The notes below the pieces were generated by a model. It did not search any database. It worked only from the letters and a program-made list of their open reading frames with translations, and was not told where the DNA came from. Shown piece by piece: positions 94 through 44,204 of a DNA stretch of 44,226 nucleotides. The position numbers and the translations under genes were made by a program. Where the stretch lies: UHGV virus genome UHGV-0346409. One strand, 5' to 3'. Source of the stretch: a virus. How positions within the stretch are numbered: position 1 is the first letter of the stretch; every line of letters begins with the position of its first letter.

Positions 94-183
94 GGAGAGA
101 TGCCGGAGCGGCTGAACGGACCGGTCTCGAAAACCGGAGTAGGGGCAACTCTACCGGGGGTTCAAATCCCCCTCTCTCCGCCA
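94..183 (+). tRNA. serU: tRNA-Ser, anticodon CGA, type II tRNA with long variable arm; serves as phage attachment target
   Basis: Read directly: GGAGAGA acceptor 5' strand, CUCGAAA anticodon loop (CGA), GGTTCAAATCC T-arm, TCTCTCC acceptor 3' strand, CCA end. Symbol is by recall of the enterobacterial tRNA-Ser(CGA) gene, not searched. Confidence 0.85.
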
Positions 184-199
184 CTTTATCAATGACTTA
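123..199. repeat. attL core: left copy of 77-bp direct repeat (3' part of tRNA-Ser plus 16 nt downstream)
   Basis: Identical to 44128-44204 by direct comparison; identity breaks at 122/44127 and at 200/44205. Confidence 0.85.
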
Positions 200-268: not shown

Positions 269-1297
269 TCACGGGTTTCTGCTCAGAACTGTGACATCCA
301 GCACCGGAATATCCAGAGTCGGAGAAACTGCAGGTTTGCGATCATACGTCAGCACCTGCGCCTCAGTTTTGTGACCAGAGAACAACTGCTTTTCTTTACT
401 GCTTCCGTCGTAGTCTGAGATCCCCTTCGCTTTTAAATCGTGAAACGTTCCCGTAATCGGGTAGCCCAGCTTTTCACTTGCCGCCGCCCTGGCTTTACGC
501 CAGATATCGTTAAATCCGGTATAACTGTATTGCCCGCCATATTTGTTACAGACCACGAAATGTTGTCCTCCCAACGATTTCGCCTGCTCAAGTGCGAACG
601 TCAGTCGCTCTGAATACTGTTTGATCTGCTTTTTGCCAGTCTTACCCTGTTGGATAAACAAACCCTTACTCATAACCTGATCCCACGTCAGCTTTCGTAT
701 ATCGCCGATCCGCGTGGCGCACAGATAGGCGATCTCCATCGCGCACTGTAAAACGGGAGATGCCTCCTGATAAATTGCGATATATTCCTCGTCCGTGAAA
801 TAGTAGTCGCGGGGCTTGAGGGAAAATTTACTGACGCCCTGGCATGGATTCCCTTTTACGTATCCGCGTTCGTATCCCCAGCGGAATACTCGCGACATAC
901 TGGCTTTTTCATGGTTCGCCTGTGTTTTGCTTTTCAGCCCCCGCTTGTCCATATACAGCCGCACGTGAGCAGGTTTTATGTTGTCGGCTTTCATTTTCCC
1001 GAACGCGGCGAGTAATTTCTTCTGGTGCTGCAGATAATCCTTTTGTGTACGCTGACCGAGTTCCAGATAGTAGGTGCTGTTGAGAAATTTGTTCCAGAGT
1101 TTACTGAACGTCATGACATCAATAGCATCATTCAGGATCTCTTCGTATTTCACCCATACCTGAGCAATTGACAGATCATTAATTTTACCCAGCGTAATAC
1201 ACTCTCGGGGCGTTGGTTTGAAATAATAGCTGTATTTGTTTTTATAAACGCGGGGTGGCAGCTTATTATCTTCCGCGCTTTTTCGTGTTCTGCTCAT
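269..1297 (-). CDS. int: Tyrosine recombinase / phage integrase
   Basis: 342-aa ORF beside the tRNA att site; C-terminal region has the R..HxxR..Y-type layout of lambda-family integrases (recall); ATG start overlaps upstream stop (ATGA). Confidence 0.85.
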   Translation of the reverse strand: MSRTRKSAEDNKLPPRVYKNKYSYYFKPTPRECITLGKINDLSIAQVWVKYEEILNDAIDVMTFSKLWNKFLNSTYYLELGQRTQKDYLQHQKKLLAAFGKMKADNIKPAHVRLYMDKRGLKSKTQANHEKASMSRVFRWGYERGYVKGNPCQGVSKFSLKPRDYYFTDEEYIAIYQEASPVLQCAMEIAYLCATRIGDIRKLTWDQVMSKGLFIQQGKTGKKQIKQYSERLTFALEQAKSLGGQHFVVCNKYGGQYSYTGFNDIWRKARAAASEKLGYPITGTFHDLKAKGISDYDGSSKEKQLFSGHKTEAQVLTYDRKPAVSPTLDIPVLDVTVLSRNP

Positions 1298-1904: not shown

Positions 1905-2473
1905 TAGCGTACCCTCAGCGAACGTTCGCCGCGTTCCAGATGTGCGCCTGGTACCGGGTTTAATAACTCGGCTGGTGGTGTTTCTCCACGCGCCAGTATT
2001 TCGGCGGCAACCGCCTCCGCAGATTCAATCACTTCTTTAATGGCTCGCTTGTTTGGTGTAATAACCGTTTCTACATCAACAAGTGACACGCCTTCATACT
2101 CATCCGGGATCTTATCTTTGCTATCGATAATTACCCGGATAGCCCCCTGTGCATCAGTAAATGTGTTTTTTGCGGTTTTTAGTTTATCCAGGCCAGCAGC
2201 TTGCAGGCAGGCGAGCATATGCTTCCGAATTGCTTTTTCCTTGCCTTCAAAGGACGTCTTACGGGTAGCCAGGCGAGACATTTCTTCAGCGCAGGTACTG
2301 GCATTGCCCTGTAAATTGCGGCAGATGACCATCATGGCGTCCAGTTTGTCTCCCAGTTCTCCTTCCATACCTTCAAGTGTGTCGGCGATCATCTCTGGCG
2401 TCAGTTCGTCGGAGGTTTCCAGCAGGTCAATCAGGCTGGCGTATTCTTTTGCAATAGCGATAGCGGTGCTCAT
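1904..2473 (-). CDS. Gp157-like protein (siphovirus Gp157 family, recombination-module associated)
   Basis: 189-aa acidic helical protein whose N-terminus resembles Gp157-family proteins that accompany ERF/RecT in phage recombination modules (recall); coupled to the upstream ERF-like gene. Confidence 0.45.
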   Translation of the reverse strand: MSTAIAIAKEYASLIDLLETSDELTPEMIADTLEGMEGELGDKLDAMMVICRNLQGNASTCAEEMSRLATRKTSFEGKEKAIRKHMLACLQAAGLDKLKTAKNTFTDAQGAIRVIIDSKDKIPDEYEGVSLVDVETVITPNKRAIKEVIESAEAVAAEILARGETPPAELLNPVPGAHLERGERSLRVR

Positions 2474-4692
2474 GCTGTTTGCTCCTGTGCGGCGGCGAGA
2501 GCGGCGAGGCGTTCGGTTTTGATTTCATTCAAACGGCGCAGGCGCGAACCAAGATAAGTTGAATACTCCTTATCACCTTTGGATTCTGCGGCTTTGCGGT
2601 GAACTTCTACTTCCCGCGCAATAAGGCCATAGACTTTATTAACTTCATTGGGGGTTACGGCTGCAGCCAGTGTTTTGGCAACACCTGAGAGTCGTTCATC
2701 CAGTTCTTCACGCAGTCGGGTAGCATCCTCTGCTTTCTCGCTTGCCTTCTTAATACCGTATTCTGTATTCAGCTCGGCGGTGTAGGCACTATCGTTATGC
2801 ATATCCATATAAACATCTGCCGCAAATCCCAGATGAGATAGTGCTTTGACGGTGGCATCAGTAAGAGACTTTTTGGAGGCCTCTTTTTCCATTACCAGTG
2901 CCCCTTTGTTATTTTTTGATATGTAATCCGTGTGGCCATATGACGGAATAAATCCTTTCACTCCGTTCCAGACGTACCAGAGATCTATCCGGATGGTGTG
3001 TACTGACAGGCAGAACAGGGAGCCGTCAGCATCCCTGACAGGTTTTTGTCCAATAATTTTCCCTGTCTGATCCTGTATAGGTTCAAGTAATGGCACACCG
3101 CGATCCACTCGCTCCTCCTTGATTTCAACTCCCCAACCAATGCCTTCCATTCCCAGCACTTCAGTCGCACGCATCAAAATATATTGTGCGCGTATGGAGT
3201 GCAGTCCTGCACCGTAATCATTATGTGTGACATACGCAGGATCGGTCCGCTGAACGCGATTCCAGATAGCCAAATTTGCTTTGCTCTGGTCATCATTCAT
3301 TGCTGACAGATAATGCTCCATGCGAATTGATGCAGTTTTTTCCTCGGTATGGATCCGCTCAACCAGAGCGTCAACGTTCTGCACCAGGTCTTTTACCTGC
3401 TCGCTAAGTTTTTCTTGTGGAGGAGTCTCTTCTTCCAGGATAACAGTTACAGATTCCCGCTGTGATACGGCGTTATTTTCTGGTACGCCATACACATGGC
3501 GGGGCGTGACAAACTGCTCACGCAACTGCTGCAAACTACGCTCTCCAGCATTTGCTGCTTCGCTTTTTTCGCCCTGATTTGAGGGGGGTTCTGACATCAT
3601 CCCATCGATTGAGAATCGCCCGCCGCCGTGGTTGGTGACTTTTACATCACCCTTTGGTGCTGCGTCCTTTGGCTTCTCTTCAACAGCATTTGCATCACGC
3701 TGCCCGTTAGCTTGCAGCCAGTTGTCGATGTGACTGCGCAGGGATTGCGGGAAATGGTACGTGTCTTTTGCGGGGGCACTCTGAACGACACCGAATACGG
3801 ATGCCCGGTCATAGGAAAGGATCTGATCCGTTGTGCGCAAGGCCATTGACCAGCGTTTAAAATCCTCCCGATCCTGGCTGATTATTTCGTCTGCCGCTTT
3901 CAGGACGCTGGGGGTGATTTTTTCCGGGCCAACGGGTAACAGAGCGCAGGCAATTTCACGATCCAGTGTAGCGTGAGTCTGTTTGTAAGGACGTGCGGAT
4001 GCTGTTTCTGGTTTTACCTCCGGCAGCATTTCATCGCGTTTACCGGGATTCTCTACCCATTTTTTTATAAATTTGGAGATAGTCCAACTGGTCGGGTTTT
4101 GTTCCTGGGTATCGCAACTTGCCAAAATTGCATGTACCAGATTATTCAATCCAGCAATATGCATGTACTCGATGGGCTTACACGCCACCATGGCATCAAG
4201 AACGATGCGGTTAAACGCGTCAACCTCATCCTCACTGTCAGTATCACTGTTGTCGAGCATCTCCAGGTATTCACGCGTCTGCGCAAGCAATTCACTGTTG
4301 ACTTCGTTGGCGTCGTGGCTGAACAGCAGAACGGCGGCGAATCGTTCACGAGCCGGCAGTTTCATCAGGTCGTTAACCTGTGCGATATCTGCTGAACCGC
4401 TATCTACAACGGGGGTGTTAACTACCCATTTTTCGCCATCAAAACTGTGTTCTGTGGCGAACGTCTCATCAAACTCACCAACGCCTGGGCGCGGTTGGCC
4501 CGGGGCATCTTCCCAGATTTTAGGTTTGAAATAGTTGTCGCCGTGGTCAGGGTAGGCTTCCCACAATTTGCCGATGATGATGTTCTCGGCAACTTTTTTG
4601 TTAGGGGCGTCGATGGCGATGGCCAGCGCCGGGATCGCGCCGTTTTTGAGCGCGCCTTTTTTCGCTTCTAACAAGCCGTTAAAAATGGTCAT
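2470..4692 (-). CDS. Large recombination protein with ERF-like single-strand-annealing domain in its C-terminal half and an N-terminal ~430 aa of unknown function
   Basis: 740-aa ORF; region around aa 450-640 (NDYGAG..IRAQYIL.., ..KKSLTDATVKALSHLGFAADVYMD) resembles the ERF family by recall; preceded by ATGAGGAAAGACCA motif. Confidence 0.5.
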   Translation of the reverse strand: MTIFNGLLEAKKGALKNGAIPALAIAIDAPNKKVAENIIIGKLWEAYPDHGDNYFKPKIWEDAPGQPRPGVGEFDETFATEHSFDGEKWVVNTPVVDSGSADIAQVNDLMKLPARERFAAVLLFSHDANEVNSELLAQTREYLEMLDNSDTDSEDEVDAFNRIVLDAMVACKPIEYMHIAGLNNLVHAILASCDTQEQNPTSWTISKFIKKWVENPGKRDEMLPEVKPETASARPYKQTHATLDREIACALLPVGPEKITPSVLKAADEIISQDREDFKRWSMALRTTDQILSYDRASVFGVVQSAPAKDTYHFPQSLRSHIDNWLQANGQRDANAVEEKPKDAAPKGDVKVTNHGGGRFSIDGMMSEPPSNQGEKSEAANAGERSLQQLREQFVTPRHVYGVPENNAVSQRESVTVILEEETPPQEKLSEQVKDLVQNVDALVERIHTEEKTASIRMEHYLSAMNDDQSKANLAIWNRVQRTDPAYVTHNDYGAGLHSIRAQYILMRATEVLGMEGIGWGVEIKEERVDRGVPLLEPIQDQTGKIIGQKPVRDADGSLFCLSVHTIRIDLWYVWNGVKGFIPSYGHTDYISKNNKGALVMEKEASKKSLTDATVKALSHLGFAADVYMDMHNDSAYTAELNTEYGIKKASEKAEDATRLREELDERLSGVAKTLAAAVTPNEVNKVYGLIAREVEVHRKAAESKGDKEYSTYLGSRLRRLNEIKTERLAALAAAQEQTA

Positions 4693-7583: not shown

Positions 7584-8648
7584 ATGAGTCGTTTGCTGAT
7601 TAACGAAAACCCCCTTCAGGTCCTGCCCACGTTGGCATGCACTATAGGGTTGAATGAAGCCATCGTTCTACAGCAAATCCACTACTGGCTGAATTCATCT
7701 CAAAATTTCTTCGAAAATCGCCACTGGGTGTACAACAGTGTGACCGATTGGCAAGAACAATTCCCGTTCTGGAGCGAGTCGACAATAAAACGCGTGCTGG
7801 CCAATCTGGAAAAATTGAATGTGGTATTTACTGGGAACTTTAACAGTGATGCCTGGGATAAAACCAAGTGGTATTCAATCAATTATGCCCAGTTATGTAA
7901 GATTGAAGAGACAACATTCCCTGTGGCCAATCGATTAGGTCAAGTTGACCCAATCGAAGAGGTCAATGTGACCCAAGCATCAGGTCAAGTTGACCCATGC
8001 GCTAAGGTCAAAATGACCCAATCTCTTACAGAGAATACAACAGAGAGTACTACAGAGATAAAAGATCCCCCTTACCCCCAAAAGGGGGAGGGCGAGGAAA
8101 TCATTCTCGCTGACGCTCAAAAAGCTCTGAACTACTACAACGAGAAAGTCGGTACACGCTGCCGCGATGTTAAACCGTTTGTCATGCTGCTGACTGCCAC
8201 CACCACCCGCGCTGGTTACAGCGTGGCTGAGATTCAGTTAGTAATTCGTTGGGTTATTGCGACATGGCGCCGTCGTAGCGGAAGCGTGCCGAAACCTGCG
8301 AACATTTGCCGCGTAAACCGGTTTGACGGATATCTGGCTGACGCTGAGGCGTGGGCCACTGCTGAGGCTGCCGTTGACCCTGCTGAAGTTGTGAAGAGCT
8401 ACAACGAGATTCTGGGCGACCTGCTACCTATAGCTGAAATTGATACTGACCGCCGTCGGGCAATCCTGCGCCTGCTGGCACATATGCGCACGCAAACTCT
8501 TGGCGCATTTATCGGCTACTTCGAAAAATTCCGCGATAACGCCCCAGACTTCTATTTCGGCGGCGAATATCGCACCGGCTGGCGGGCAGGGTTTGATTAC
8601 CTGATGAAGCCAGAAACACTGCGTAAAACCAGGGAAGGGGCATTATGA
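7584..8648 (+). CDS. Replication initiator (lambda O-like) containing the origin iterons
   Basis: 354-aa ORF from ATG 7584 (GGAG upstream); four iterons inside the coding sequence as in lambda O/ori; coupled (ATGA) to the helicase gene. Confidence 0.65.
   Translation: MSRLLINENPLQVLPTLACTIGLNEAIVLQQIHYWLNSSQNFFENRHWVYNSVTDWQEQFPFWSESTIKRVLANLEKLNVVFTGNFNSDAWDKTKWYSINYAQLCKIEETTFPVANRLGQVDPIEEVNVTQASGQVDPCAKVKMTQSLTENTTESTTEIKDPPYPQKGEGEEIILADAQKALNYYNEKVGTRCRDVKPFVMLLTATTTRAGYSVAEIQLVIRWVIATWRRRSGSVPKPANICRVNRFDGYLADAEAWATAEAAVDPAEVVKSYNEILGDLLPIAEIDTDRRRAILRLLAHMRTQTLGAFIGYFEKFRDNAPDFYFGGEYRTGWRAGFDYLMKPETLRKTREGAL
7938..8020 (+). repeat. Origin iterons: four copies of GGTCAA-NN-TGACCCA at 7938, 7961, 7983, 8006, followed by an AT-rich stretch
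   Basis: Read directly; 22-23 bp spacing (about two helical turns). Confidence 0.75.
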
Positions 8649-10036
8649 ATCCAGAAGAACTGGAAGCGATCGTTCTCGCTGGTCTGATTAACGGTGGCGC
8701 GACGCCTGACGCGTTTGATGTGATTGCCACTACTCCGGAGGAAGCCTTCAGCATCGTGTTTCACCGTCGCGCTTTCAGCGAAATCAAAAAGCAGGCACTG
8801 GCGAACGGCATGATCGACATGTTGTTTATCAGCGAAGCGCTGGGCGGTTCCAGCCTTGCGGATCTGTCTCAAATATCCCGGATCCCGGCAACGGTACCGA
8901 ATCTGAAAGGCTATGCCGGGAAAATGGTGCGGGCATGGCGGAGCCGCAAAATGGCGGCATTGTTGCAATCTGGCGCGGATGGTATCCGTAACGCTGTAAA
9001 CCAGAGTCAGCGTGATGAGGTTATTGAATCTCATGTTGCTCAGGTGCTGGATATGAGCGCCGCTACCGGCACAGTCCAGCCGGTACACATCAAAGAGCTG
9101 TTACCGCTCTACATTGACACCGTTGATAAACGGATGTCTGGTGACGCGCAGGAAATGATGCTGAAAACCGGAGTCGAGGATCTGGATGTCGCCCTGGGCG
9201 GTATCAACATGACCGATCTTGTTGTGGTTGCCGGTCGTCCAGGCATGGGGAAAACGGAATTTACCCTGAAGATTATCGATGGCGTTACCGCAGATGGCGG
9301 CGGCGCACTGTTTTTCAGCATGGAAATGGGCGCTCAGCAGATTGTTGAACGTACCGTTGCCGGGGCTGGGAATATGTCAACGTCGCGTCTGCGTAATCCA
9401 AAAGAAATGGACGATGAGGATTTGACCAGATTAACCGCCGCGCTTGCAATCATGCAGGATCGCGATATCTGGATTGTTGATGCCACTGATTTGACGATTG
9501 AGCAGATCCGCGCCATTGCAGAGACTCATAAACGCCGTTATCCGCACCTGAAGTTGATTGGTGTTGATTACATGGGCCTGATCAAAAAACCGAAGGCCGA
9601 GCGCCACGATCTCGCTGTCGGGCATATCTCCCGCAACATGAAGACTATGGCCATGCGTCTGCATACCCCTGTTTTTGCTCTTAGCCAGCTTTCCCGCCAG
9701 GTGGATTCTCGACCTGCTGGCCAGCGTCGCCCGGTGATGTCGGACCTGCGCGATTCCGGCAGTGTTGAGCAGGACGCTGACAGCATTTTGTTTTTGTACC
9801 GCGATGAAGTTTACACACCTGATTCACCTGCAAAGGGTATCGCCGAGGTGATTATCGGTAAAAACCGTTCTGGCGGGGCAGGTGAAATTATTTATCAGGA
9901 ATTCCGGAATGGGCATTTCCTGCCAATTGATCAACACGTAGCACGCGAAAAAATACGCATCCAGAAGGAGGCAGAGCAACCGAGAAAACGTGAAAAACGG
10001 TATTCAAACAAAAACTTTAATACGGACCCATTTTAA
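8645..10036 (+). CDS. Replicative DNA helicase, DnaB family
   Basis: 463-aa ORF with Walker A (GRPGMGKT), and DnaB-like motifs (recall); directly downstream of the initiator. Confidence 0.85.
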   Translation: MNPEELEAIVLAGLINGGATPDAFDVIATTPEEAFSIVFHRRAFSEIKKQALANGMIDMLFISEALGGSSLADLSQISRIPATVPNLKGYAGKMVRAWRSRKMAALLQSGADGIRNAVNQSQRDEVIESHVAQVLDMSAATGTVQPVHIKELLPLYIDTVDKRMSGDAQEMMLKTGVEDLDVALGGINMTDLVVVAGRPGMGKTEFTLKIIDGVTADGGGALFFSMEMGAQQIVERTVAGAGNMSTSRLRNPKEMDDEDLTRLTAALAIMQDRDIWIVDATDLTIEQIRAIAETHKRRYPHLKLIGVDYMGLIKKPKAERHDLAVGHISRNMKTMAMRLHTPVFALSQLSRQVDSRPAGQRRPVMSDLRDSGSVEQDADSILFLYRDEVYTPDSPAKGIAEVIIGKNRSGGAGEIIYQEFRNGHFLPIDQHVAREKIRIQKEAEQPRKREKRYSNKNFNTDPF

Positions 10037-12406: not shown

Positions 12407-12440
12407 CAGGTTGAATGTTTGGCGCGGTTATACTCTATTT

Positions 12441-12515
12441 GCGCTTAAAAAGGTATTTAGTCACAACCAGCACGAGGCCGAATACTCTGTCAAAGTACCG
12501 CCCATGTAAAACTGT
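12441..12515. repeat. Left copy of ~75-bp imperfect direct repeat; decayed remnant of the 3' end of a membrane-protein gene
   Basis: Aligns with 16042-16117 with 4 substitutions and 1 single-base indel; would encode ..FGLVLVVTKYLFKRK-stop on the minus strand but the frame is broken upstream. Confidence 0.7.
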
Positions 12516-12583: not shown

Positions 12584-13507
12584 TTATTGGTTTCTGAGGA
12601 AAGCGATTCTTGAAAGGGTCATTTGCGTCTGGCAGTCGACCATTTTCTTGACTTCAGCATCTGTTCCCTGCATTGAAACTTTACCGCACATAGCATCCTT
12701 AGTTTTGATCCACTGACGCTGAGAAGGCAGCAACTCTTTTTTCTTCGCCGGCGTTAACCTGCCCCAGACTGTATTCAAATCAGAGTCAGCATTCGCAAAT
12801 GCCATTCGGGACTGATCAAGGCTTTCAGCTTTTTGCGGCTGAAGTTGTGCCTGCCTCTCTATTTGCTTCTCCGCCTCATACCTGGCCTGTTCCTGTGCCC
12901 TGAGTTGCACCTGTTGTTCCGCTTCAATTTGACTCTGTTGGGCATCCTTAGCCTGCTGGATTTTCTGCTGCTCAACGATCGGGTTGATAATGGAAAGCGA
13001 TGTCAGTAAAGCGGCGCCCACTGATATCGGATTATCAGAAGAGGTTTTTACAAAAACGTTTTTCTGATCGTCGGTCGCCTGCACGGTGTAGGTGATACGT
13101 TTTGAAAAGGCGTTTGCGTTGTTCTCCAAAAACAGATTTTCCATTTGCTTATCGAGATTACGATTAAAATTCTTTCGGTAAGCATCAGAAAGCTGGATGT
13201 ACTCGTTCGCAGGTAGAGTCATCGTCACGGTCCCTTCACAAGTTTTCATTGTGCTGCCCGTGTCACTTGATGTTGTGGAGATTTCAGAGACGGCTAGTTT
13301 GATCTTGTCCAGTGTGCTTCGTTTGGTCTGATTAGTGACATCAGGGTATTTATCGACCTGTTCAGAGAGTCCTTCATAAGCAGATTTTTTTAATAAATCC
13401 ATGAGAGCTGATTGGGTCATTTCCGAAGAACAACCGATCTCATCTTTTTTGTTATCACAGCCTGTAAGGGCAATGGCGAGTAAGAGTACTGAGTATTTTA
13501 ATCTCAT
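12584..13507 (-). CDS. Lipoprotein with coiled-coil Q/E-rich middle region and DUF1311 (LprI-like) C-terminal domain
   Basis: Signal peptide with lipobox LTGC; C-terminus LNTVWGRL..QRQWIKTKDAMC..DCQTQMTLSRIAFL fits the DUF1311 pattern (recall). Confidence 0.6.
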   Translation of the reverse strand: MRLKYSVLLLAIALTGCDNKKDEIGCSSEMTQSALMDLLKKSAYEGLSEQVDKYPDVTNQTKRSTLDKIKLAVSEISTTSSDTGSTMKTCEGTVTMTLPANEYIQLSDAYRKNFNRNLDKQMENLFLENNANAFSKRITYTVQATDDQKNVFVKTSSDNPISVGAALLTSLSIINPIVEQQKIQQAKDAQQSQIEAEQQVQLRAQEQARYEAEKQIERQAQLQPQKAESLDQSRMAFANADSDLNTVWGRLTPAKKKELLPSQRQWIKTKDAMCGKVSMQGTDAEVKKMVDCQTQMTLSRIAFLRNQ

Positions 13508-14535: not shown

Positions 14536-15201
14536 ATGAAAGCCGACAACTTAAGAATTATAGAGAATGGCAAATATGTTTTCGATATGTTCTTGGATAC
14601 TGGTGAATTTTACTATACAAGTCATGCCTTTGACACGAGAGAAGATGCAAAAAGCTGGATGGAAGAATGGCAGATTTGGGCAAATAATGTATCGAGTGGG
14701 AAAGTAAGTAGTATTTATTATATTTTACAAGTGCCTGATACTTGGGCCGGTTCTTCAGATAAAAATAACCCTTACTCGGGACTTTATGTGAAAATAGGGC
14801 GTTCCAATAATGTGCTAAAAAGGTTGTCTAACCTGCAGACAGGTGCATTTGGTCAATTAATATTACACGCTTTGGAACCAGGTGGTTCAGAAAAAGAAAA
14901 CTATCTTCATGAAAAATTTAGCAACGAAAGACGTCAAGGTGAATGGTTTGTTTGTACTAAGGAACTTACCAAGCATATATTTACAACATGGTTTAAAAAC
15001 AAAATGCTCCCACCAGAACATCAAATAAAAATAATGCAGCTCGCAGAAAGAATAGGTATTTATTCGCATGTTCATACACTAATGGGGGGGAAGCCAGACT
15101 TAGTAAACCCATCTATTAGTGAACCTTGGGAATGCGAAAAATATGTTTTGGTTGATATGATTTATAGCTCTTTAGCAAAGCAAGTTAATCATAAAAAATA
15201 A
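14536..15201 (+). CDS. T5orf172-domain (GIY-YIG-like) protein with unknown N- and C-terminal extensions
   Basis: Central region IYYILQ..GLYVKIGRSNNVLKRLSNLQTG..LHEKFSNERRQGEWF matches the T5orf172/MUG113 signature (recall); AT-rich coding sequence. Confidence 0.6.
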   Translation: MKADNLRIIENGKYVFDMFLDTGEFYYTSHAFDTREDAKSWMEEWQIWANNVSSGKVSSIYYILQVPDTWAGSSDKNNPYSGLYVKIGRSNNVLKRLSNLQTGAFGQLILHALEPGGSEKENYLHEKFSNERRQGEWFVCTKELTKHIFTTWFKNKMLPPEHQIKIMQLAERIGIYSHVHTLMGGKPDLVNPSISEPWECEKYVLVDMIYSSLAKQVNHKK

Positions 15202-16035: not shown

Positions 16036-16641
16036 TTACTTGCGTTTAAAAAGGTATTTTGTCACGACCAGCACGAGGCCGAATACCTCTGTCAAAGTAC
16101 CGCCCATGTACAACTGTAGTGTTAAATCCTCAAATTCCAGCTTACCTGCGCCGTCGGCAATAAATACACCATTCATTATCAGAAGTTGGCAAGCAAGGAT
16201 AATCAGGAACCATTTCCCGTATCGTTTTTTTAGAGCGATTTCTGCTTCAAAATCTTTGTTGTTGAGTTGTTTGCGCTCATGCTCGGTATCAAGTGAATTC
16301 ACCTGTTTCACAGATGTGAACTCGGTCAAGATTTTACTCTCAGTACGGGTGACTTGTTGAGAGGGTGTAACAGTTGGAATTCTTTTGCTAGACGCAGCTA
16401 CAGCCATTTTGCGAGCTTCGGCAGCTCTTTTTCTGGCTATTCCGCGAATACGGACAGCCGTTTTTTTGGGGGCGTGCGAAACCTTTGGCTGAGGTGAAGT
16501 TTCGTCAGGAGACTGAACCGGGGTTTCATCGTCCCCCGGCTCAACCTCTTCTGCTAACTGACGGTGTAGGTTGAGGGAATCCTTCAGTCGGCGTGCAACT
16601 TCCTGTTTGAAACGGCTGTTAAAATCGTCATCCGATGGCAT
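16036..16641 (-). CDS. Membrane protein: charged, low-complexity N-terminal region and two C-terminal transmembrane helices
   Basis: Hydrophobic segments WFLIILACQLLIMNGVFI and LTEVFGLVLVV near the C-terminus; start 9 nt after the ImmA-like stop (operon). Confidence 0.6.
   Translation of the reverse strand: MPSDDDFNSRFKQEVARRLKDSLNLHRQLAEEVEPGDDETPVQSPDETSPQPKVSHAPKKTAVRIRGIARKRAAEARKMAVAASSKRIPTVTPSQQVTRTESKILTEFTSVKQVNSLDTEHERKQLNNKDFEAEIALKKRYGKWFLIILACQLLIMNGVFIADGAGKLEFEDLTLQLYMGGTLTEVFGLVLVVTKYLFKRK
16042..16117. repeat. Right copy of ~75-bp imperfect direct repeat, lying within the 3' end of the membrane-protein gene
   Basis: Aligns with 12441-12515 (about 93% identity). Confidence 0.7.
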
Positions 16642-20822: not shown

Positions 20823-21206
20823 ATGTCTGAACCTCTAACCGCTGGCGTTGCTGCTGGCTCGGCGGGGGTGACGTTTGCTGCGTTATTTCCTGAGGCAACA
20901 CCTGCAGTGATGATCTGTGCGCTGGCTGGCGCAGCTCTCTATGTGTTGTCGTCCGGGCAGCATCGATTCTGGAAGCAGGTTATTTTCGCACTCATTTCGT
21001 TTGTTGGCGGTGTGTATTGCGCTGAGACAGCGTCAGCCATCATTACCGGTATTCTGAACGCGGTGCTGAGTCACCTGAACCCTCCCGTAACAGTAAAAGT
21101 CTCTCCCGCCATTGGTGCACTGGTTGCATCAGTAATCAGCGTTACATCACTGTTGCGGATCATGTCACAAGCTCGTTTATGGAAATCAGATAAGGGGATG
21201 AAATAA
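20823..21206 (+). CDS. Putative holin / lysis membrane protein (127 aa)
   Basis: Three to four hydrophobic segments; first gene after the late promoter. Confidence 0.5.
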   Translation: MSEPLTAGVAAGSAGVTFAALFPEATPAVMICALAGAALYVLSSGQHRFWKQVIFALISFVGGVYCAETASAIITGILNAVLSHLNPPVTVKVSPAIGALVASVISVTSLLRIMSQARLWKSDKGMK

Positions 21207-21490
21207 TGACCCTGCACTCTGTCCTCATTAATGCCAATGCAATTATCTGTCTGATGCTGGCACTGCGGTTGATGTTTTTTCAAAAAACAGGCCGCTATCG
21301 TTTTTTCATCTCACTAACTGCTTACCTGGCGATTCTGTCTGCTGCGTGGATAGCCCTACGAATTTTTTACGGGAAATACACGCAGGTTGATCCCGCAGAG
21401 TTCTTTCTCAATCTCACCATCTGTATTGCTGTCTGGCGGGCACGAGGGAATATTTCAAAAATAACAGGAGACAGGTATGACCGATCCTAA
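21206..21490 (+). CDS. Putative holin or lysis-associated membrane protein (94 aa)
   Basis: Three hydrophobic segments with charged C-terminus; coupled (TAATG) to the upstream gene. Confidence 0.45.
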   Translation: MTLHSVLINANAIICLMLALRLMFFQKTGRYRFFISLTAYLAILSAAWIALRIFYGKYTQVDPAEFFLNLTICIAVWRARGNISKITGDRYDRS

Positions 21491-21956
21491 ATGGCTAATT
21501 GAGGCACGAAAAAATCTCGGCATTCGGGAAATGAAAGGGAAGCAACATGCTGCAGAAATTGTGCAGTACTGGAAAGATATCAAACGCGGCGGCATTAAGG
21601 ATGATGAAACCCCGTGGTGCGCTGCCTTCACCGGAGCAATGCTGGAACGTGTAGGTATTCGCTCAACGCGTTTTGAGTCTGCGAATTCTTATCTCGATTG
21701 GGGTAATGAACTGAAGGAACCCGCCTATGGATGCATTGCTATTCTGTCTCGGTCTGGCGGTGGTCACGTTGGCTTTGTTGTCGGGAAAAATGCCGCCGGG
21801 GATTTAATGATTTTGGGTGGTAACCAGGCAGATGAAGTAAATATCAAAGCTTTTCCTCGTTCCCGCGTAACAGGCTACCGCTGGCCAGCAGGCCAAACTG
21901 ATGTTCCACAATCACTTCCATTCGTGAATGCTGAGAAATCTATCTCAGAAGCGTAG
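21477..21956 (+). CDS. Putative endolysin, cysteine-peptidase type (CHAP/NlpC-P60-like)
   Basis: AGGAG RBS; candidate catalytic Cys (PWCAAF) and His (GGGHVGFV); position in lysis cassette. Confidence 0.55.
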   Translation: MTDPKWLIEARKNLGIREMKGKQHAAEIVQYWKDIKRGGIKDDETPWCAAFTGAMLERVGIRSTRFESANSYLDWGNELKEPAYGCIAILSRSGGGHVGFVVGKNAAGDLMILGGNQADEVNIKAFPRSRVTGYRWPAGQTDVPQSLPFVNAEKSISEA

Positions 21957-23799: not shown

Positions 23800-24366
23800 A
23801 TGGCAAGTCAGGCTGAGGTCGCAGCACATTTACTGCTATCAGATCGTCGTCTGCGCGATCTCGCAAAACTTCCGGGAGCACCAGTCCCACAAGGACGTGG
23901 TGATTGGGAGCTAGACGCCTGGCGCCATTTCTATATTCATTATCTCCGGAGTAATAGACGCGACACAGTTGGTACTGACGAACCGGAAGTGGGGGACAAT
24001 TCTCCCGAAAAAAATCGCGAGCAGTGGCTGAAAAATGAGGAACGACAGGAGCGAATCCTGATGGCTCGCGTGAAACGCCGCATTCTTGCTAAACGCTACG
24101 CGCCAATTGAATTAATCAGCGTCGCTGTATCTCGCGTCGCAGTTGAATTACGTACCCGTGTCGAATCGTGGCCACCACGGTTGAAAAAGGTGTGGCCTGA
24201 AATGCCGCAGGAGGCGAGCAGTGTTTTACGAGAGGAGCTGGCGATAGCCCTGAATGAACTGGCAGACATACGAGTCGACTTCAGCGATTACGATGTCAGC
24301 GATATCGAACGCGATCTCGACAGGGTTGAATCCCTTGCGCGTGACGATACCGATGACGGGGGTTGA
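23800..24366 (+). CDS. Terminase small subunit (lambda Nu1-like)
   Basis: 188-aa ORF immediately upstream of and overlapping the large terminase gene; GAGG RBS; assignment by position and general resemblance. Confidence 0.55.
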   Translation: MASQAEVAAHLLLSDRRLRDLAKLPGAPVPQGRGDWELDAWRHFYIHYLRSNRRDTVGTDEPEVGDNSPEKNREQWLKNEERQERILMARVKRRILAKRYAPIELISVAVSRVAVELRTRVESWPPRLKKVWPEMPQEASSVLREELAIALNELADIRVDFSDYDVSDIERDLDRVESLARDDTDDGG

Positions 24367-26218
24367 GTGGGCTGATAAATATTTTTATCTCCCTGAGGGC
24401 TCCAGCCACATCGCTGGCCACTGGACGACTCAGCCGGTCCAGGTAGTGATGCTCAATATGATGACTAACGACGCGATAAAAATCGTGTCTGTTCGCAAAT
24501 CAGCTCGTCTCGGTTATACAAAAATACTCGTCGCGGCGCTGCTCTATTTCGCTGAGCACAAAAAACGTAGTGCCGTGGTCTATCAGCCTATCGATGACGA
24601 ATCGGATGGATTTGTTGCCGACGAGGTTGACCCCGCTATCGCCGAAATGCCGGTGATTCAGAAAATTTTCCCCGACTGGGATAAAAGCAACGAGCGTAAC
24701 AATCTCCAGCGTAAAGAAATGAGCGGCGCGATTATTGATTTTCGCGGCGCGAGTGCACCAGGAAATTTCCGGCGACTAACGAAACAGGTTGTCGAGGGTG
24801 ACGAAGTTGACGGCTGGCCGCTGGAAGTTGCCAAAAAAGGCAAAGGCGAGGGCTCGCCCATCGAACTGGCGCTCGTTCGAATTAAAGGGGCAGCGTACCC
24901 GAAGGCGATTTTCGGCTCGACGCCAACCGTCACCGGAAAAAGTCATATTGAAATGCTGGAGGATGCCGCTGACCTGACGTTTCGTTTTTACCTGAAATGT
25001 CCGCATTGTGGCGAGGAGCAGGTCCTGGTATTTGGTTTCGACGGCATCGAATATGGCCTCAAATGGGATAATAGCCTGCAGACAAATGAGGCGAAATCGT
25101 CGTCCGCGTATTACCAGTGCTGCCACTGTCCTGAGCATTTTTACTATCGCGATCTCGAAAAAATGGAGCTCGCGGGGCGCTGGATAGCAGAGGACTGCAC
25201 CTGGACGCGGGACGGTATTCGTTTTTTTGATCACGACGGTGGTGTCGTTCGCGCGCCGAAACACGCGGCGATCGTGATAAACGCCATGTATTCGCTGAAT
25301 CTCGACGGCTGGGGCGAGATTGTCAGCGAGTGGCTGAAAGCGAAGGGCGATCCGCTCAAAGAAAAGACGTTTCATAACACGACGCTCGGCGAACTCTGGA
25401 GTGACGTAGCCAGCGAGCAGCTGGAGCACGATATTCTGGTTAATCGCCGGGAAAAATACGCCAGCCAGGTTCCTGACGGTGTTGTTTATCTGACCGGCGG
25501 CATCGACTCTCAGACGTCCGGTCGCTACGAGTGTTACGTGTGGGGCTGGGGAGTGGAGGAGGAGTGCTGGCTGATTGATAAAACAATCGTCCTCGGTCGC
25601 TACGACGAGGAGGACACGCTGCAGCGCGTCGACGGAGTGATTCGCAAACAATACCGGCGCAGCGACGGGACCACAATCGGCGTCAGTCGCTGGGCGTGGG
25701 ATACCGGTGGTATAGATGCGCAGGTCGTTTATAACCGCTCGCTGAAACTCGGTCCGCTGTGGGTCATTCCAATTAAAGGTGCGAGTTCATACGGTCAGCC
25801 AGTCGTAAATATGCCGCGTACACGTAACGCGAATAAAGTCTATTTGTCGTTAATCGGTACTGATACGGCAAAAGATTTGCTCGCAATGCGCCTGCCGCTG
25901 GAACCCGATTCTAAATCGGCGACACCAAGTGCGATTCATTTTCCCAACGACGACGAAATATTCGGCACGACAGAGGCAAAACAGCTCGTCTCTGAAGTTC
26001 TGATCCCGAAACTGATTAACGGTCGCGTCGTTTATCGCTGGGACAACCAGGGCCGGCGAAATGAGGCGCTCGACTGCTGGGTATACGCGCTGGCAGCGCT
26101 ACGTATCAGTAAAATTCGTTTCCAGCTCAATCTCGAGACGCTCGCTGAGCAACGGAAAAAATCACAAAACAAACTGTCTCTCGAGGAGATGGCCAGAATG
26201 CTCGGAGGGAGCTCATGA
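24254..26218 (+). CDS. A: Terminase large subunit (lambda gpA-like)
   Basis: Long collinear matches to lambda gpA by recall (VEWAD.YYLP, KSAR.GY.K, CPHCGEEQ, TTLGE.W, YLT.GIDSQ, WGWG..EE.WLID, IPIKGAS.YG.PV, NEALDC.VYALAALRIS). Start may be 24254, 24293 or 24353. Confidence 0.9.
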   Translation: MNWQTYESTSAITMSAISNAISTGLNPLRVTIPMTGVEWADKYFYLPEGSSHIAGHWTTQPVQVVMLNMMTNDAIKIVSVRKSARLGYTKILVAALLYFAEHKKRSAVVYQPIDDESDGFVADEVDPAIAEMPVIQKIFPDWDKSNERNNLQRKEMSGAIIDFRGASAPGNFRRLTKQVVEGDEVDGWPLEVAKKGKGEGSPIELALVRIKGAAYPKAIFGSTPTVTGKSHIEMLEDAADLTFRFYLKCPHCGEEQVLVFGFDGIEYGLKWDNSLQTNEAKSSSAYYQCCHCPEHFYYRDLEKMELAGRWIAEDCTWTRDGIRFFDHDGGVVRAPKHAAIVINAMYSLNLDGWGEIVSEWLKAKGDPLKEKTFHNTTLGELWSDVASEQLEHDILVNRREKYASQVPDGVVYLTGGIDSQTSGRYECYVWGWGVEEECWLIDKTIVLGRYDEEDTLQRVDGVIRKQYRRSDGTTIGVSRWAWDTGGIDAQVVYNRSLKLGPLWVIPIKGASSYGQPVVNMPRTRNANKVYLSLIGTDTAKDLLAMRLPLEPDSKSATPSAIHFPNDDEIFGTTEAKQLVSEVLIPKLINGRVVYRWDNQGRRNEALDCWVYALAALRISKIRFQLNLETLAEQRKKSQNKLSLEEMARMLGGSS

Positions 26219-39200: not shown

Positions 39201-40841
39201 ATGGCTATTTCTCAAAACTTTAAAACGCAGGTTGTATTTGGGGGAAGAATAGACCCGTCGTTTCGGCGCGGTACAACAGAACTCAACGATGCAATTCGGC
39301 AGACGTCGTCTACTGTCGGAAAATTAACGAAAAGCCAGGATAAATTAAAAGACAAAATCGCAGCAATGAAACTGGCGGGTAAAGACGTTTCTGATTTATC
39401 TGCTCAGTATCAAAAGCTGGACCGTCGGATAAAAGCGACAACACAGGACCAGGAAGCTCTGAATACTCAGCTCGCCAAAAAACAGCGGCTGGAGAAGTGG
39501 ACGGGGCGCGCAAAAGGTGCTGCAAAATGGGGAGGGCGAGCCGCCGCAGGTGCGGTGAGGGCCACGGGACGGGGTATCAAATGGGGGACGCTGGGGGCCG
39601 TGGGTCTGCTCGGCGGCGCGGCTGCTGGCGCGTTGGCAATGAATGCAGAGACGTCAGAAAAACTCGGTCTGGCGAAGTCCTACGGTGTTGGCATCGAAAA
39701 ATACGCTGCGTGGGAAAATATTGGTAAAGCTGCAGGGCTGAATGGCGAAAACGTAGGAGATCTGTCGGAGGAGTTGACTAATAAAATCGGGGAGGTTGGA
39801 AACGAAAAAAACCTGAACCCCATGTTGTTTCAAATTGGCCTGACAAAAAAACGGATGGCTAAATGGGATCGAGAAAAACAGTTCAATGAAGTTATGCGGC
39901 GTATCTCTGAAATGAAGGATGATCAACAGGCGGCGAGTCTGGCTGATCAGCTCATGGGGGGGGAAGCTAATAAAATAATGACTTATATGCGGGCGACTGG
40001 TAAAAGCTGGGAGCAGACTCTGTCGGACGCTCAAAAATCAAACCTGCTAACGAAAGAAGGGGCTGAGGGTGCAGCGCGCGCGCACGTATCCGTCACGAAT
40101 CTGTGGGGGGCAATCACATCGGGGCTGGCAGATACTCTCGGGAAAATCGGAGGGGAACTCGCGCCGACGTTTGACGCTATGCGAGACGGGCTGGCATCCT
40201 GGTTTAAAGAGAATCAAGGGGGGGTTGTTGATAGTATTAAAGAATGGGTTAAGCCAGAAAATATGAAAAAAATGTGGGAGGGGATAGTCAGTTTTGGCGA
40301 GGCGTGCGTTAAATTCGGAAAAATAATTTGGGCAGTCGTAAAAAAACTGGAGTGGTTAATACCGGACGAGAAAACAGACGAGGAGCAGCGCGTATATAAC
40401 GAAGAATATAATAAGGCGTATCAGGAATTCATGGATGGCGGAGGAAAATATTCACCAAACCCAGGAATGGCGGCGGATAATGTTGCAAAAGCAAAAGCCG
40501 CCGAAGCCGTGGATAATATGCGACACCCTGAACGTCTTGCTCGTGCAAAATCACAGGCTGAATCACTGCTCTCGTTTGCTAACCCGTTTACTGGATTAAT
40601 AAATAAAGGCTCAACGCCTGAATCACAAAACTCAGCAACGTTGAATATTGACGCGCTGAGACAAGCAGTCGCAACTCCAGCGCCAGAGCAAAACAATAAA
40701 ATTGAAATCAATATTATCGGAGCGGCAGATCCACAATCAACACAGCAGGCTGCTGCATCGGGTGTGCTCGACGGGCTGAGACAAGTTGCGAGTTCGTACA
40801 ACCGTGGTGCGATGTTTGATAAACCAGCGGCGGCGGGGTGA
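39201..40841 (+). CDS. Tail tape measure protein
   Basis: 546-aa helical, Ala/Gly/Lys-rich ORF with G-rich segment (GRAKGAAKWGGRAAAGAVRATGRGIKWGTLGAVGLLGGAAAGA); position before gpU-like gene. Confidence 0.65.
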   Translation: MAISQNFKTQVVFGGRIDPSFRRGTTELNDAIRQTSSTVGKLTKSQDKLKDKIAAMKLAGKDVSDLSAQYQKLDRRIKATTQDQEALNTQLAKKQRLEKWTGRAKGAAKWGGRAAAGAVRATGRGIKWGTLGAVGLLGGAAAGALAMNAETSEKLGLAKSYGVGIEKYAAWENIGKAAGLNGENVGDLSEELTNKIGEVGNEKNLNPMLFQIGLTKKRMAKWDREKQFNEVMRRISEMKDDQQAASLADQLMGGEANKIMTYMRATGKSWEQTLSDAQKSNLLTKEGAEGAARAHVSVTNLWGAITSGLADTLGKIGGELAPTFDAMRDGLASWFKENQGGVVDSIKEWVKPENMKKMWEGIVSFGEACVKFGKIIWAVVKKLEWLIPDEKTDEEQRVYNEEYNKAYQEFMDGGGKYSPNPGMAADNVAKAKAAEAVDNMRHPERLARAKSQAESLLSFANPFTGLINKGSTPESQNSATLNIDALRQAVATPAPEQNNKIEINIIGAADPQSTQQAAASGVLDGLRQVASSYNRGAMFDKPAAAG

Positions 40842-40843
40842 CA

Positions 40844-41266
40844 ATGAGTGATGCGATAAACGGTGCTGAGGATATCATGCTAGGCGTGGGTGATTTCATT
40901 TTTGCTATATCAACAGTAGCGTACAACAAACTGCAACGTAGTGACGCCTGGCGCTGGGCTCAGCAAACACGGTTCGGAAAAAACGACGCATTGCAGATAA
41001 CCGGACGACCGAACCCCACAATCACGATCGATGGGAAAATAAATGCCTTATTCCTTGATGGGTGCGGCATTGGCTTGTTAACAGATTTGCGGGCGCTGGG
41101 GAACTCGGGAGAACCCCAGCAACTGGTGCTGGGGACCGGGGAGGTGAAGGGGTACTGGGTTATCAGGGAGTTAACAGAAACGCAAAACAGTTTTCTGAAA
41201 GGAGGGACCCCAAAATCGCAGGACTTTTCACTCACGCTCGAATATTACGGAGCTTCGCTGGATTGA
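40844..41266 (+). CDS. Tail protein (P2 gpU-like)
   Basis: Collinear similarity to P2 U by recall (..W.W....RFGK.DA.Q..G......I.G.........G); GGGG RBS before ATG 40844 (track start 40838 is GTG). Confidence 0.7.
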   Translation: MSDAINGAEDIMLGVGDFIFAISTVAYNKLQRSDAWRWAQQTRFGKNDALQITGRPNPTITIDGKINALFLDGCGIGLLTDLRALGNSGEPQQLVLGTGEVKGYWVIRELTETQNSFLKGGTPKSQDFSLTLEYYGASLD

Positions 41267-41487
41267 ACTTCTTTCGGTTTTTTATCACCGAGAGCGGACC
41301 ACAGCAACAGAATGATCCACATCAAAAATATCCATCCGAATAATATATTCAGAATAACGACCATTGCGCAGCTTTTATGTCCCCTTATTAGAGCAATTAC
41401 TAACGGTATTACGTATAAAATGATGGATATTAACGGGTTCGCCATTAACCATATATACAGAGCGATAACCCACGCAAATAATTCCAT
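41245..41487 (-). CDS. Small polytopic membrane protein on the opposite strand inside the tail operon (moron; candidate superinfection-exclusion protein)
   Basis: Very hydrophobic 80-aa ORF (three predicted TM segments); GAGG RBS before the ATG at 41487; AT-rich; sits in the gap between gpU- and gpX-like genes. Confidence 0.4.
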   Translation of the reverse strand: MELFAWVIALYIWLMANPLISIILYVIPLVIALIRGHKSCAMVVILNILFGWIFLMWIILLLWSALGDKKPKEVQSSEAP

Positions 41488-41503
41488 TTGAGGCCTCATA
41501 ATC

Positions 41504-41716
41504 ATGATTACATATACGACGCGGGACGGTGACCGTCTCGATCAAATCTGCTTTGCGGTCTACGGGAGAGCGTCAAAAACGACAGAGACTGTTTTATATC
41601 AGGTTTCGAATTACGGCGTAACTGATATGTGTGCCGTGTTTCGTGCTGGAGAAAAAATTGTTTTACCCGATATCGAACCAGAACCGGTTAAAAAAGAAAC
41701 GCAATTATGGGATTGA
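41504..41716 (+). CDS. Tail protein (P2 gpX-like)
   Basis: 70-aa ORF resembling P2 X by recall (..GD.LD.IC...YGR......VL..N.......VF..G..I.LPD.......E...LW). Confidence 0.7.
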   Translation: MITYTTRDGDRLDQICFAVYGRASKTTETVLYQVSNYGVTDMCAVFRAGEKIVLPDIEPEPVKKETQLWD

Positions 41717-41719
41717 TGA

Positions 41720-42763
41720 ATGAGTGATTACGTAAATACTGGCGTGGAGGCGTGGAAACCTAATTTTTATATATCTGCTGATAATAAAAACATCACGGAT
41801 AAAATAAGAAAAGGTTTGATCAATATCACGCTGACAGATTACGGCGGTTCCAGTAAACAGACAGACGAACTCCGCGTAGCAATAGTTTCTGAAACTCTGA
41901 AAATTCCGGCCCGTGGAGTGAAAATTAGCATTGGGCTCGGTTTCGGTAATCAGATAATTGATAAAGGCATATACATCGTTGACGGTGCTAGCAGTGGCGG
42001 TGAACCCCGGGTAGTTGATTTCACAGCAAAAGCGGCTCCGATGAACGCGGCAAAGGGCTCTCCAACAGTTCAGAGCAAAAAGACGCGCTCATGGAGCGAC
42101 GTCACCGTCAGCGATATCGTTGCGACAATAGCGAGCGATAACGGGCTAAAACCTCGCGTATCAAAGCGGTTTGCAGACAACATTATCACGCAGCTCGATC
42201 AAGTCGGTGAGTCAGATATGCACCTGATGTCGAGACTAGCAACACGATTCGATGCGGTGAGCAAACCCGCAGGAGGGTACTGGATATTCCTGCCGCGTGG
42301 CGCGGGCGAATCTGTTAACGGAGCACCGCTTCTGCACTACACGCTCACGCGTCGTGATAACTCCAGCTGGGGTTATTCGAGAAATGGACAAAACGGCGAT
42401 AGTGGCGGAGGTGGCGAAAATTCGGAGCCGACATATCTGATCAAATACCACGATACGGCAACAGGGCAGATCAAGGAGCTGCGCACAGGCAGTGGTGGTG
42501 ATCCTGTCATTGAATGGCCGGCAGTTGAGCCGTCGCTCGACGCAGCGAAAGAGGCCGCGCCGGGGCTAAAAGGAGGTGCGGCTAAAAAAGAGTTTTCCAT
42601 GACGTACACAACGCCAGCAACGCTCGATTTAGTATCGCTGACTGCAGAATGCAAAGTCACAACACAAGGGTTCGGGACAGAGGAGGACCGAGACTGGACA
42701 ATCAATACGTTGACGCTGACGCTGGCTGAAAACGGATTCTCTGCGCGACTGTCGCTGGAGTAA
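41720..42763 (+). CDS. Tail protein (P2 gpD-like)
   Basis: 347-aa ORF with P2 D-like N- and C-terminal regions (recall: ..W....VSD.V..IA..NGL; C-terminal DWTI..LT..L...GF...L.LE). Confidence 0.7.
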   Translation: MSDYVNTGVEAWKPNFYISADNKNITDKIRKGLINITLTDYGGSSKQTDELRVAIVSETLKIPARGVKISIGLGFGNQIIDKGIYIVDGASSGGEPRVVDFTAKAAPMNAAKGSPTVQSKKTRSWSDVTVSDIVATIASDNGLKPRVSKRFADNIITQLDQVGESDMHLMSRLATRFDAVSKPAGGYWIFLPRGAGESVNGAPLLHYTLTRRDNSSWGYSRNGQNGDSGGGGENSEPTYLIKYHDTATGQIKELRTGSGGDPVIEWPAVEPSLDAAKEAAPGLKGGAAKKEFSMTYTTPATLDLVSLTAECKVTTQGFGTEEDRDWTINTLTLTLAENGFSARLSLE

Positions 42764-44127: not shown

Positions 44128-44204
44128 GGTCTCGAAAACCGGAGTAGGGGCAACTCTACCGGGGGTTCAAATCCCCCTCTCTCCGCCACTTTATCAATGA
44201 CTTA
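44128..44204. repeat. attR core: right copy of 77-bp direct repeat (displaced 3' part of tRNA-Ser)
   Basis: Identical to 123-199. Confidence 0.85.

Follow-up and report, generated by a model that had tools for sequence, protein, structure and literature searches.

A T4 Imm-family gene antisense in the tail module of a temperate prophage at tRNA-Ser(CGA)

The 80-aa open reading frame (ORF) on the minus strand between the gpU-like and gpX-like tail genes of the E. coli prophage analysed here, hereafter imm, is best explained as a genuine prophage gene for an inner-membrane protein of the T4 Imm family, which would be expressed in the lysogen and would block the DNA entry of phages that arrive later. 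We consider this reading as a whole fairly probable. Homology to T4 Imm and the orientation of the gene suggest the membrane location, the DNA-entry block and the expression in the lysogen. The identity of the gene as an imm homologue is already known, as RefSeq calls the product of the identical locus 'superinfection immunity protein', and in this respect our analysis mainly confirms public annotation. Mildly new are the conserved residence of the gene in the tail module, the variability of the slot that holds it and the question of its promoter.

The window, that is the whole stretch of DNA that was analysed (44,226 nt), is one complete temperate prophage of ~44 kb at tRNA-Ser(CGA), in which a lambda-like head module is combined with a P2-like contractile tail. 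Its landmarks are as follows.

123..199 and 44128..44204: attL and attR, a perfect 77-nt direct repeat that contains the 3′ part of tRNA-Ser(CGA) (94..183)
269..1297, minus strand: integrase
8645..10036: DnaB-like helicase gene
20823..21956: two holin-family genes (PF16931, PF05449) and a CHAP endolysin
24254..26218: lambda-type large terminase
39201..40841: tape measure gene

The tail module ends in the order tape measure, gpU, tail protein X, gpD and tail fibre gene. Several other features of the prophage were recorded alongside. Three to four iterons of 22–23 nt (TGACCCAA..GGTCAA) lie at 7922..8011, inside a 366-aa ORF upstream of the DnaB-like helicase gene, and probably represent a replication origin within an O-like initiator gene. 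A direct repeat of ~80 nt (12436..12515 and 16037..16117, 92–97% identical) brackets a 3.6-kb segment, which may be another inserted cargo block; within it, a 307-aa protein on the minus strand (12584..13507) ends in an LprI lysozyme-inhibitor domain, and a further gene (14536..15201) encodes a T5orf172/MUG113-domain protein. Near the integrase end, a 740-aa ORF on the minus strand (2470..4692) gave no Pfam match at E ≤ 0.001.

The region around imm is made up of the following elements.

40838..41266, plus strand: gpU-like tail protein, the left flank (PF06995, E 1e-32)
41245..41487, minus strand: imm-like gene, 80 aa (MELFAWVIAL...QSSEAP), a predicted inner-membrane protein of the T4 Imm/PF14373 family
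41245..41266: tail-to-tail overlap of 22 nt between the last 6 codons plus stop of imm and the 3′ end of gpU
41267..41503: variable cassette, 237 bp, 38.0% G+C, which fills exactly the interval from the gpU stop to the gpX start
41488..41505, minus strand: in-frame upstream extension (MIMRPQ), which gives 86 aa in some RefSeq calls and is not conserved
41494..41497, minus strand: GAGG Shine-Dalgarno sequence, 6 nt upstream of the ATG at 41487, read from the sequence
41504..41716, plus strand: tail protein X (gpX), the right flank (PF05489, E 2.2e-15)
41720..42763, plus strand: gpD-like late control or baseplate hub protein (PF05954, weak match; RefSeq 'phage late control protein')

The initial annotation had described an 80-aa minus-strand ORF with a GAGG ribosome-binding site, placed in AT-rich DNA between gpU-like and gpX-like genes and overlapping the 3′ end of gpU, and all of this is borne out. 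Pfam identifies both flanks, and the 22-nt overlap is present in the related loci L003–L008 as well. The C-terminal tail of the protein differs in frame-shifted variants (P0007–P0009). The cassette is clearly poorer in G+C, at 38.0%, than gpU (50.6%), gpD (51.0%) and the late region (50.1%); gpX is also fairly AT-rich (43.7% G+C).

The start codon could be placed by comparison with relatives. The list of ORFs runs this frame from the first ATG (41245..41505, 86 aa), which overlaps the gpX ATG within the sequence CATG, and the 80-aa form begins at the third in-frame ATG (41487..41485). The minus strand around the latter reads tatGAGGcctcaaATGgaa, with GAGG at 41497..41494 and a 6-nt spacer before the ATG, while no Shine-Dalgarno sequence could be read in front of the ATG at 41505. 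All orthologues begin with MEL or MEIF and retain GAGG or AAGGA at the Shine-Dalgarno position. Upstream ATGs are out of frame in a diverged E. coli relative (L003), and in Salmonella (L008) an in-frame stop lies 4 codons upstream of the 80-aa start. We therefore favour the conserved 80-aa start, which is also the RefSeq start in the commonest protein cluster (P0001), and reject the 86-aa start because its extension is not conserved; MIMRPQ is probably not translated. RefSeq itself gives different starts for identical DNA, with products of 86, 80 and 66 aa (window 41245..41505; L002 6446..6706; L023 2979..3179). The palindrome GAGGCCTC at 41490..41497 places one GAGG on each strand, that on the plus strand lying 10 nt upstream of the gpX ATG (41504), so that the divergent imm and gpX genes share one 8-bp ribosome-binding element. 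This arrangement is specific to the lineage and is conserved in neither L003 nor L008.

Length alone is weak evidence for a gene, as 4% of shuffled versions of the 300-nt region contained 86 or more codons in a row without a stop, and T outnumbers every other base at the second codon position of imm (40 of 81 codons). Both figures, together with the disagreement among RefSeq starts (66, 80 or 86 aa), would suit a chance ORF in an AT-rich spacer, whose hydrophobicity would come from T-rich second codon positions. Against this, the product matches PF14373 (Imm_superinfect) with 42.5 bits, over the curated gathering threshold of 27.9 (E 5.8e-11, profile positions 1–41 of 42), and orthologues are found in the same gap, likewise antisense to gpU and gpX, in E. 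coli prophages adjoining pmrD (81–83% amino acid identity) and in Salmonella (70–74%). Synonymous sites of imm are saturated across these lineages (pS 0.76–0.90), yet the proteins remain 74–83% identical, with substitutions distributed 19:1:36 by codon position. The pN values (0.10–0.18) and pN/pS ratios (0.11–0.22) are those of a constrained coding sequence, pN/pS being indistinguishable from that of gpU, gpX, gpD and the tube and tape measure genes. The Pfam match, the conserved start codon and Shine-Dalgarno sequence, the codon-position pattern and the pN/pS ratios rule out a chance ORF, to which we give next to no weight. The frame is not missing from all relatives with conserved flanks, since diverged relatives keep it in the same slot; in the closest relatives, with flanks 93% identical (435 genomes), it is swapped for another cassette. 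Together, the PF14373 match, the same-slot orthologues and the signature of purifying selection identify imm, on comparative grounds, as a genuine gene under purifying selection, and as one that is expressed at some stage.

Direct comparison with T4 Imm (NP_049660, from NC_000866) places the protein in the same family. The T4 protein scores 58.2 bits on the same PF14373 model, and BLASTP aligned the two over residues 14–78 of 80 with 22 of 65 positions identical (34%) and 40 of 65 positive (62%; E 5e-13). The lengths are similar (80 aa in the prophage versus 83 aa in T4), and PHROG 1039, 'immunity to superinfection', is matched with E 3e-14. Fourteen positions are invariant among the prophage orthologues and T4 Imm (Y25, P28, I31-A32-L33, R35, S39, L49-F50, W52, W57, I59, W63 and G67), and the prophage protein carries the family motif Y-x2-P-x2-IAL-x-R ... 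LF-G-W ... W ... W ... G. These sequence criteria make the protein a member of the T4 Imm family, and the earlier view of it as a small membrane protein of the superinfection-exclusion type gains support from PF14373, PHROG 1039 and the 34% identity to T4 Imm.

The same annotation had called the product a highly hydrophobic membrane protein, which agrees with our predictions. The GRAVY index is +1.27, and the Kyte–Doolittle profile shows hydrophobic stretches at residues 2–35 and 40–66 with RGHKS between them and a charged C-terminal tail. The AlphaFold model, made from a 46-sequence alignment (pLDDT 86), has helices at 2–16, 18–35, 40–50 and 54–66 and thus agrees with hydropathy on helical regions 2–35 and 40–66. 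The predicted protein would consist of two long kinked hydrophobic regions joined by the short basic loop RGHKS. A search for relatives in the PDB returned none except a designed transmembrane protein (E 0.013), and NCBIfam and PADLOC gave no match. A tblastn search of 50,697 phage records with the 80-aa sequence as query also found no match, which says little, as the low-complexity filter probably masks so hydrophobic a protein. Two other identities were considered and rejected. A type I toxin–antitoxin identity was discarded, the sole protein-family match being to PF14373 and no Rfam family, whether antisense RNA or toxin–antitoxin RNA, being found in 40700..42100 at E ≤ 1. A holin was likewise rejected, as the protein has no holin-family Pfam match and the holin-family genes of the phage lie elsewhere, at 20823..21956.

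PF14373 is a very large family, with 2,925 clusters at 50% identity matching at E ≤ 1e-3 and only five at E ≤ 1e-10, and function may vary across it. Most members align to the core alone (residues ~19–75 of the prophage protein), so the N-terminal helix (residues 1–17) is a feature of a small subfamily. A good number of members carry additional fused domains or are far longer than the prophage protein, with lengths of up to 318 aa in the best-scoring matches. To our knowledge, T4 Imm, acting in lytic infection, is the only member with experimental data, and our literature search on PF14373/Imm_superinfect and prophage Imm homologues returned annotation-level mentions only, with no paper testing a prophage homologue (a Nature 2024 match for 'T4 Imm' was a false lead that had matched 'T4 immunity'). 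A huge family named after one characterised member, with fused and lengthened relatives and a hydrophobic N-terminal helix to which most of them do not align, might contain proteins whose family name misleads. Here, the protein might act on host physiology, through lysogenic conversion, modulation of a host membrane protein or toxin-like addiction, with no anti-phage role. However, the similarity to T4 Imm extends over nearly the whole length of the protein, beyond the 42-residue core, the gene is strictly linked to the phage tail module in three lineages, and no antisense-RNA or toxin–antitoxin RNA family lies nearby. We judge a purely host-directed role to be quite improbable.

T4 Imm is a plasma-membrane protein that bars the DNA of secondarily adsorbing T-even phages from the cell (PMC11436027, PMC6832632; citing Lu and Henning 1989, 1993). 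By homology, the prophage protein would insert into the cytoplasmic membrane of the phage-carrying cell and would make this membrane impassable to the genome of a phage that adsorbs later, so that exclusion would take place at DNA entry, after adsorption. As imm is opposed to the late tail operon, its transcription would probably be independent and take place in the lysogen, where that operon is silent, and read-through from the late operon may damp its expression.

A role for the same gene in the phage's own lytic cycle, as protection against damage from secondary adsorption or in the timing of lysis, must also be weighed. T4 Imm is itself a lytic-cycle protein; links to stable lysis inhibition and to resistance against lysis from without have also been described for it, as has a resemblance to a holin (PMC6832632). 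Such a role would also fit with the results for the promoter, as no lysogen-type promoter was identified. However, imm faces the late operon, whose transcription would collide with the gene and not drive it. Moreover, the phage already has a lysis cassette at 20823..21956, made up of an endolysin gene and two of the holin families, and the Imm-like protein shows no holin-family match. A lytic-cycle function is thus, in our estimation, unlikely, and we retain exclusion in the lysogen as the preferred reading.

The gap between the start of imm and gpX is only 16 nt, so that any promoter of imm must lie antisense within gpX or gpD. Of the checks that had been proposed with the initial annotation, the promoter search went against expectation and found no minus-strand promoter above shuffle background. 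The consensus scan reported none on the minus strand upstream of imm, and in the sigma-70 weight-matrix scan of the minus strand from 41470 to 42200 the best site scored 7.75, compared with a median shuffle maximum of 9.2. Two elements of this region, one upstream and one downstream of imm, deserve mention.

41585..41605, minus strand: 21-nt block AACCTGATATAAAACAGTCTC, invariant in three lineages, inside antisense gpX
40977..41026, minus strand: candidate intrinsic terminator for imm, an irregular hairpin (−12.6 kcal/mol) followed by TCGTTTTTTC

The first contains TGaTATAAA, which resembles an extended −10 element and which we take as a weak promoter lead only; the block is not among the top-scoring weight-matrix sites. 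A second conserved block, ATATAAAAATTAGG in the 5′ end of gpD, is likewise a promoter lead only. The candidate terminator lies ~220 nt past the imm stop, inside antisense gpU, and relatives share its T-run, although the gpU codons for G-K-N-D also impose it. The consensus terminator scan found none near the 3′ end of imm and did not report this hairpin.

The ORF had been viewed as a moron. In the strict (Juhala/Hendrix) meaning of the word, a newly acquired unit that brings its own promoter and terminator (PMC3594210), this description holds only in part. Its G+C content is indeed distinct (38.0% versus 50–51% for gpU, gpD and the late region), but the gene has co-diverged with the tail genes, which speaks against a recent acquisition, and it comes with no promoter above background. 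Across three comparisons, amino acid identity is 83, 75 and 74% for imm and 87, 74 and 74% for gpD, with synonymous sites saturated in all. This divergence in step with the flanking tail genes marks imm, at the sequence level, as an old resident of the tail module and not a recent insertion.

The recent exchange appears to lie elsewhere, in the loss or replacement of imm in an ST131-type lineage. Among 5,426 complete E. coli genomes, 454 have the flanks. The imm cassette is found in 18 of the 5,426, at least 99% identical in all, including ETEC E24377A and the commensal SE11, while in 435 it is replaced by an unrelated cassette of 173 bp and 31% G+C (L001 2965..3137), which is unannotated in RefSeq. 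The boundaries of the swap are the gpU stop and the gpX start codon. One genome with the 173-bp cassette, among those listed, is labelled O25b:H4-ST131, and the 435 probably represent the ST131 lineage. As imm is absent from these closest relatives, whose flanks are 93% identical, it is dispensable.

Two further relatives, each with its own antisense cargo, help to place the 173-bp cassette.

L022 2423..3685, antisense: slot cargo with ORFs of 220 aa (hydrophobic N-terminal segment) and 176 aa (3155..3685)
L021 2415..3036, antisense: slot cargo with ORFs of 105 aa and 66 aa, the latter beginning with a hydrophobic, signal-like stretch

The sole ORF of the 173-bp cassette (44 aa, minus strand) is 60% identical to residues 11–53, the N-terminal membrane anchor, of the 176-aa protein, which occupies the same slot in antisense orientation. 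As it matches only this anchor, the cassette is probably the truncated stump of a different membrane-anchored cargo gene; for the same reason we rejected the idea that it is a decayed imm. A search for diverged homologues of the 44-aa ORF found none, and the cargos of L021, L022 and the 173-bp cassette received no Pfam or PHROG assignment. In no relative examined do gpU and gpX adjoin directly; every one holds some cargo. Over the roughly 20 loci of this survey, for which the gpU scan of genome contigs returned one locus, the gpU–gpX junction acts like a small hotspot in which antisense ORFs, a number of which have a hydrophobic N-terminus, are carried as cargo. Our literature search found no description of this slot. 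In one strain, E. coli CFSAN061769 (L002 7278..9519), the gpD gene beside imm is interrupted by two frameshifted copies of the IS5-like element ISKpn26 while imm is intact; given the interrupted gpD, this prophage is probably tail-defective.

Comparison with known systems shows where imm resembles them and where it differs. The prophage protein and T4 Imm share near full-length homology, similar size, two long hydrophobic regions and a short basic loop. However, T4 is virulent and carries imm among early DNA-metabolism genes, between 42 and 43, whereas here the gene belongs to a temperate prophage and lies antisense in the tail operon. T4 Imm also acts together with Sp in lytic infection, and no sp-like partner was identified in the prophage. 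A closer parallel in lifestyle is HK97 gp15, a YebO-like inner-membrane exclusion moron, which the prophage expresses, which leaves the receptor alone but keeps the incoming genome out (PMC3594210; Cumby et al. 2012) and which owes its specificity to the tail region of the incoming phage (PMC3594210). It is small and sits in the inner membrane, as is predicted for the product of imm, and it too is encoded amid the tail genes of a temperate coliphage, in its case on an insert. It differs in being YebO-like and not PF14373, a separation made here by family label, and its function is experimental whereas that of imm is inferred. P22 SieA is also a prophage-expressed inner-membrane protein that blocks the DNA passage of superinfecting phages (PMC11436027). 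It belongs to another family, is larger, and is encoded outside the tail operon in a podovirus.

The slot itself recalls a different kind of locus. Rousset et al. in 2022 are said to have described cargo or defence hotspots of P2-like phages, which hold cytoplasmic defence systems. The gpU–gpX slot shares with them a fixed junction between conserved phage genes and AT-rich cargo that is interchangeable among relatives. It differs in its position, between gpU and gpX of a hybrid with a lambda-like head and a P2-like tail, and in its cargos, which are small antisense ORFs, several with a hydrophobic N-terminus. One might go further and regard gpU–gpX, in this group of hybrid temperate phages, as a dedicated antisense slot for interchangeable envelope proteins that guard entry. 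The Imm homologue, having co-diverged with the tail module, would then fit the injection apparatus (tape measure and hub) of its own kind of contractile tail and would exclude by tail type and not by repressor immunity. We put this forward tentatively, as a rather doubtful extension of the preferred reading.

If active, genes such as imm could protect some E. coli lysogens from certain phages by a block at DNA entry. Such a block would be invisible to receptor-based prediction of host range, which is relevant to phage therapy. The natural sister prophages without imm, in 435 genomes, offer a clean comparison for the mechanism of Imm, and, should the tail-matched reading of the slot be true, this prophage would provide a genetically tractable temperate-phage system for the block that Imm-family proteins place on DNA crossing the membrane.
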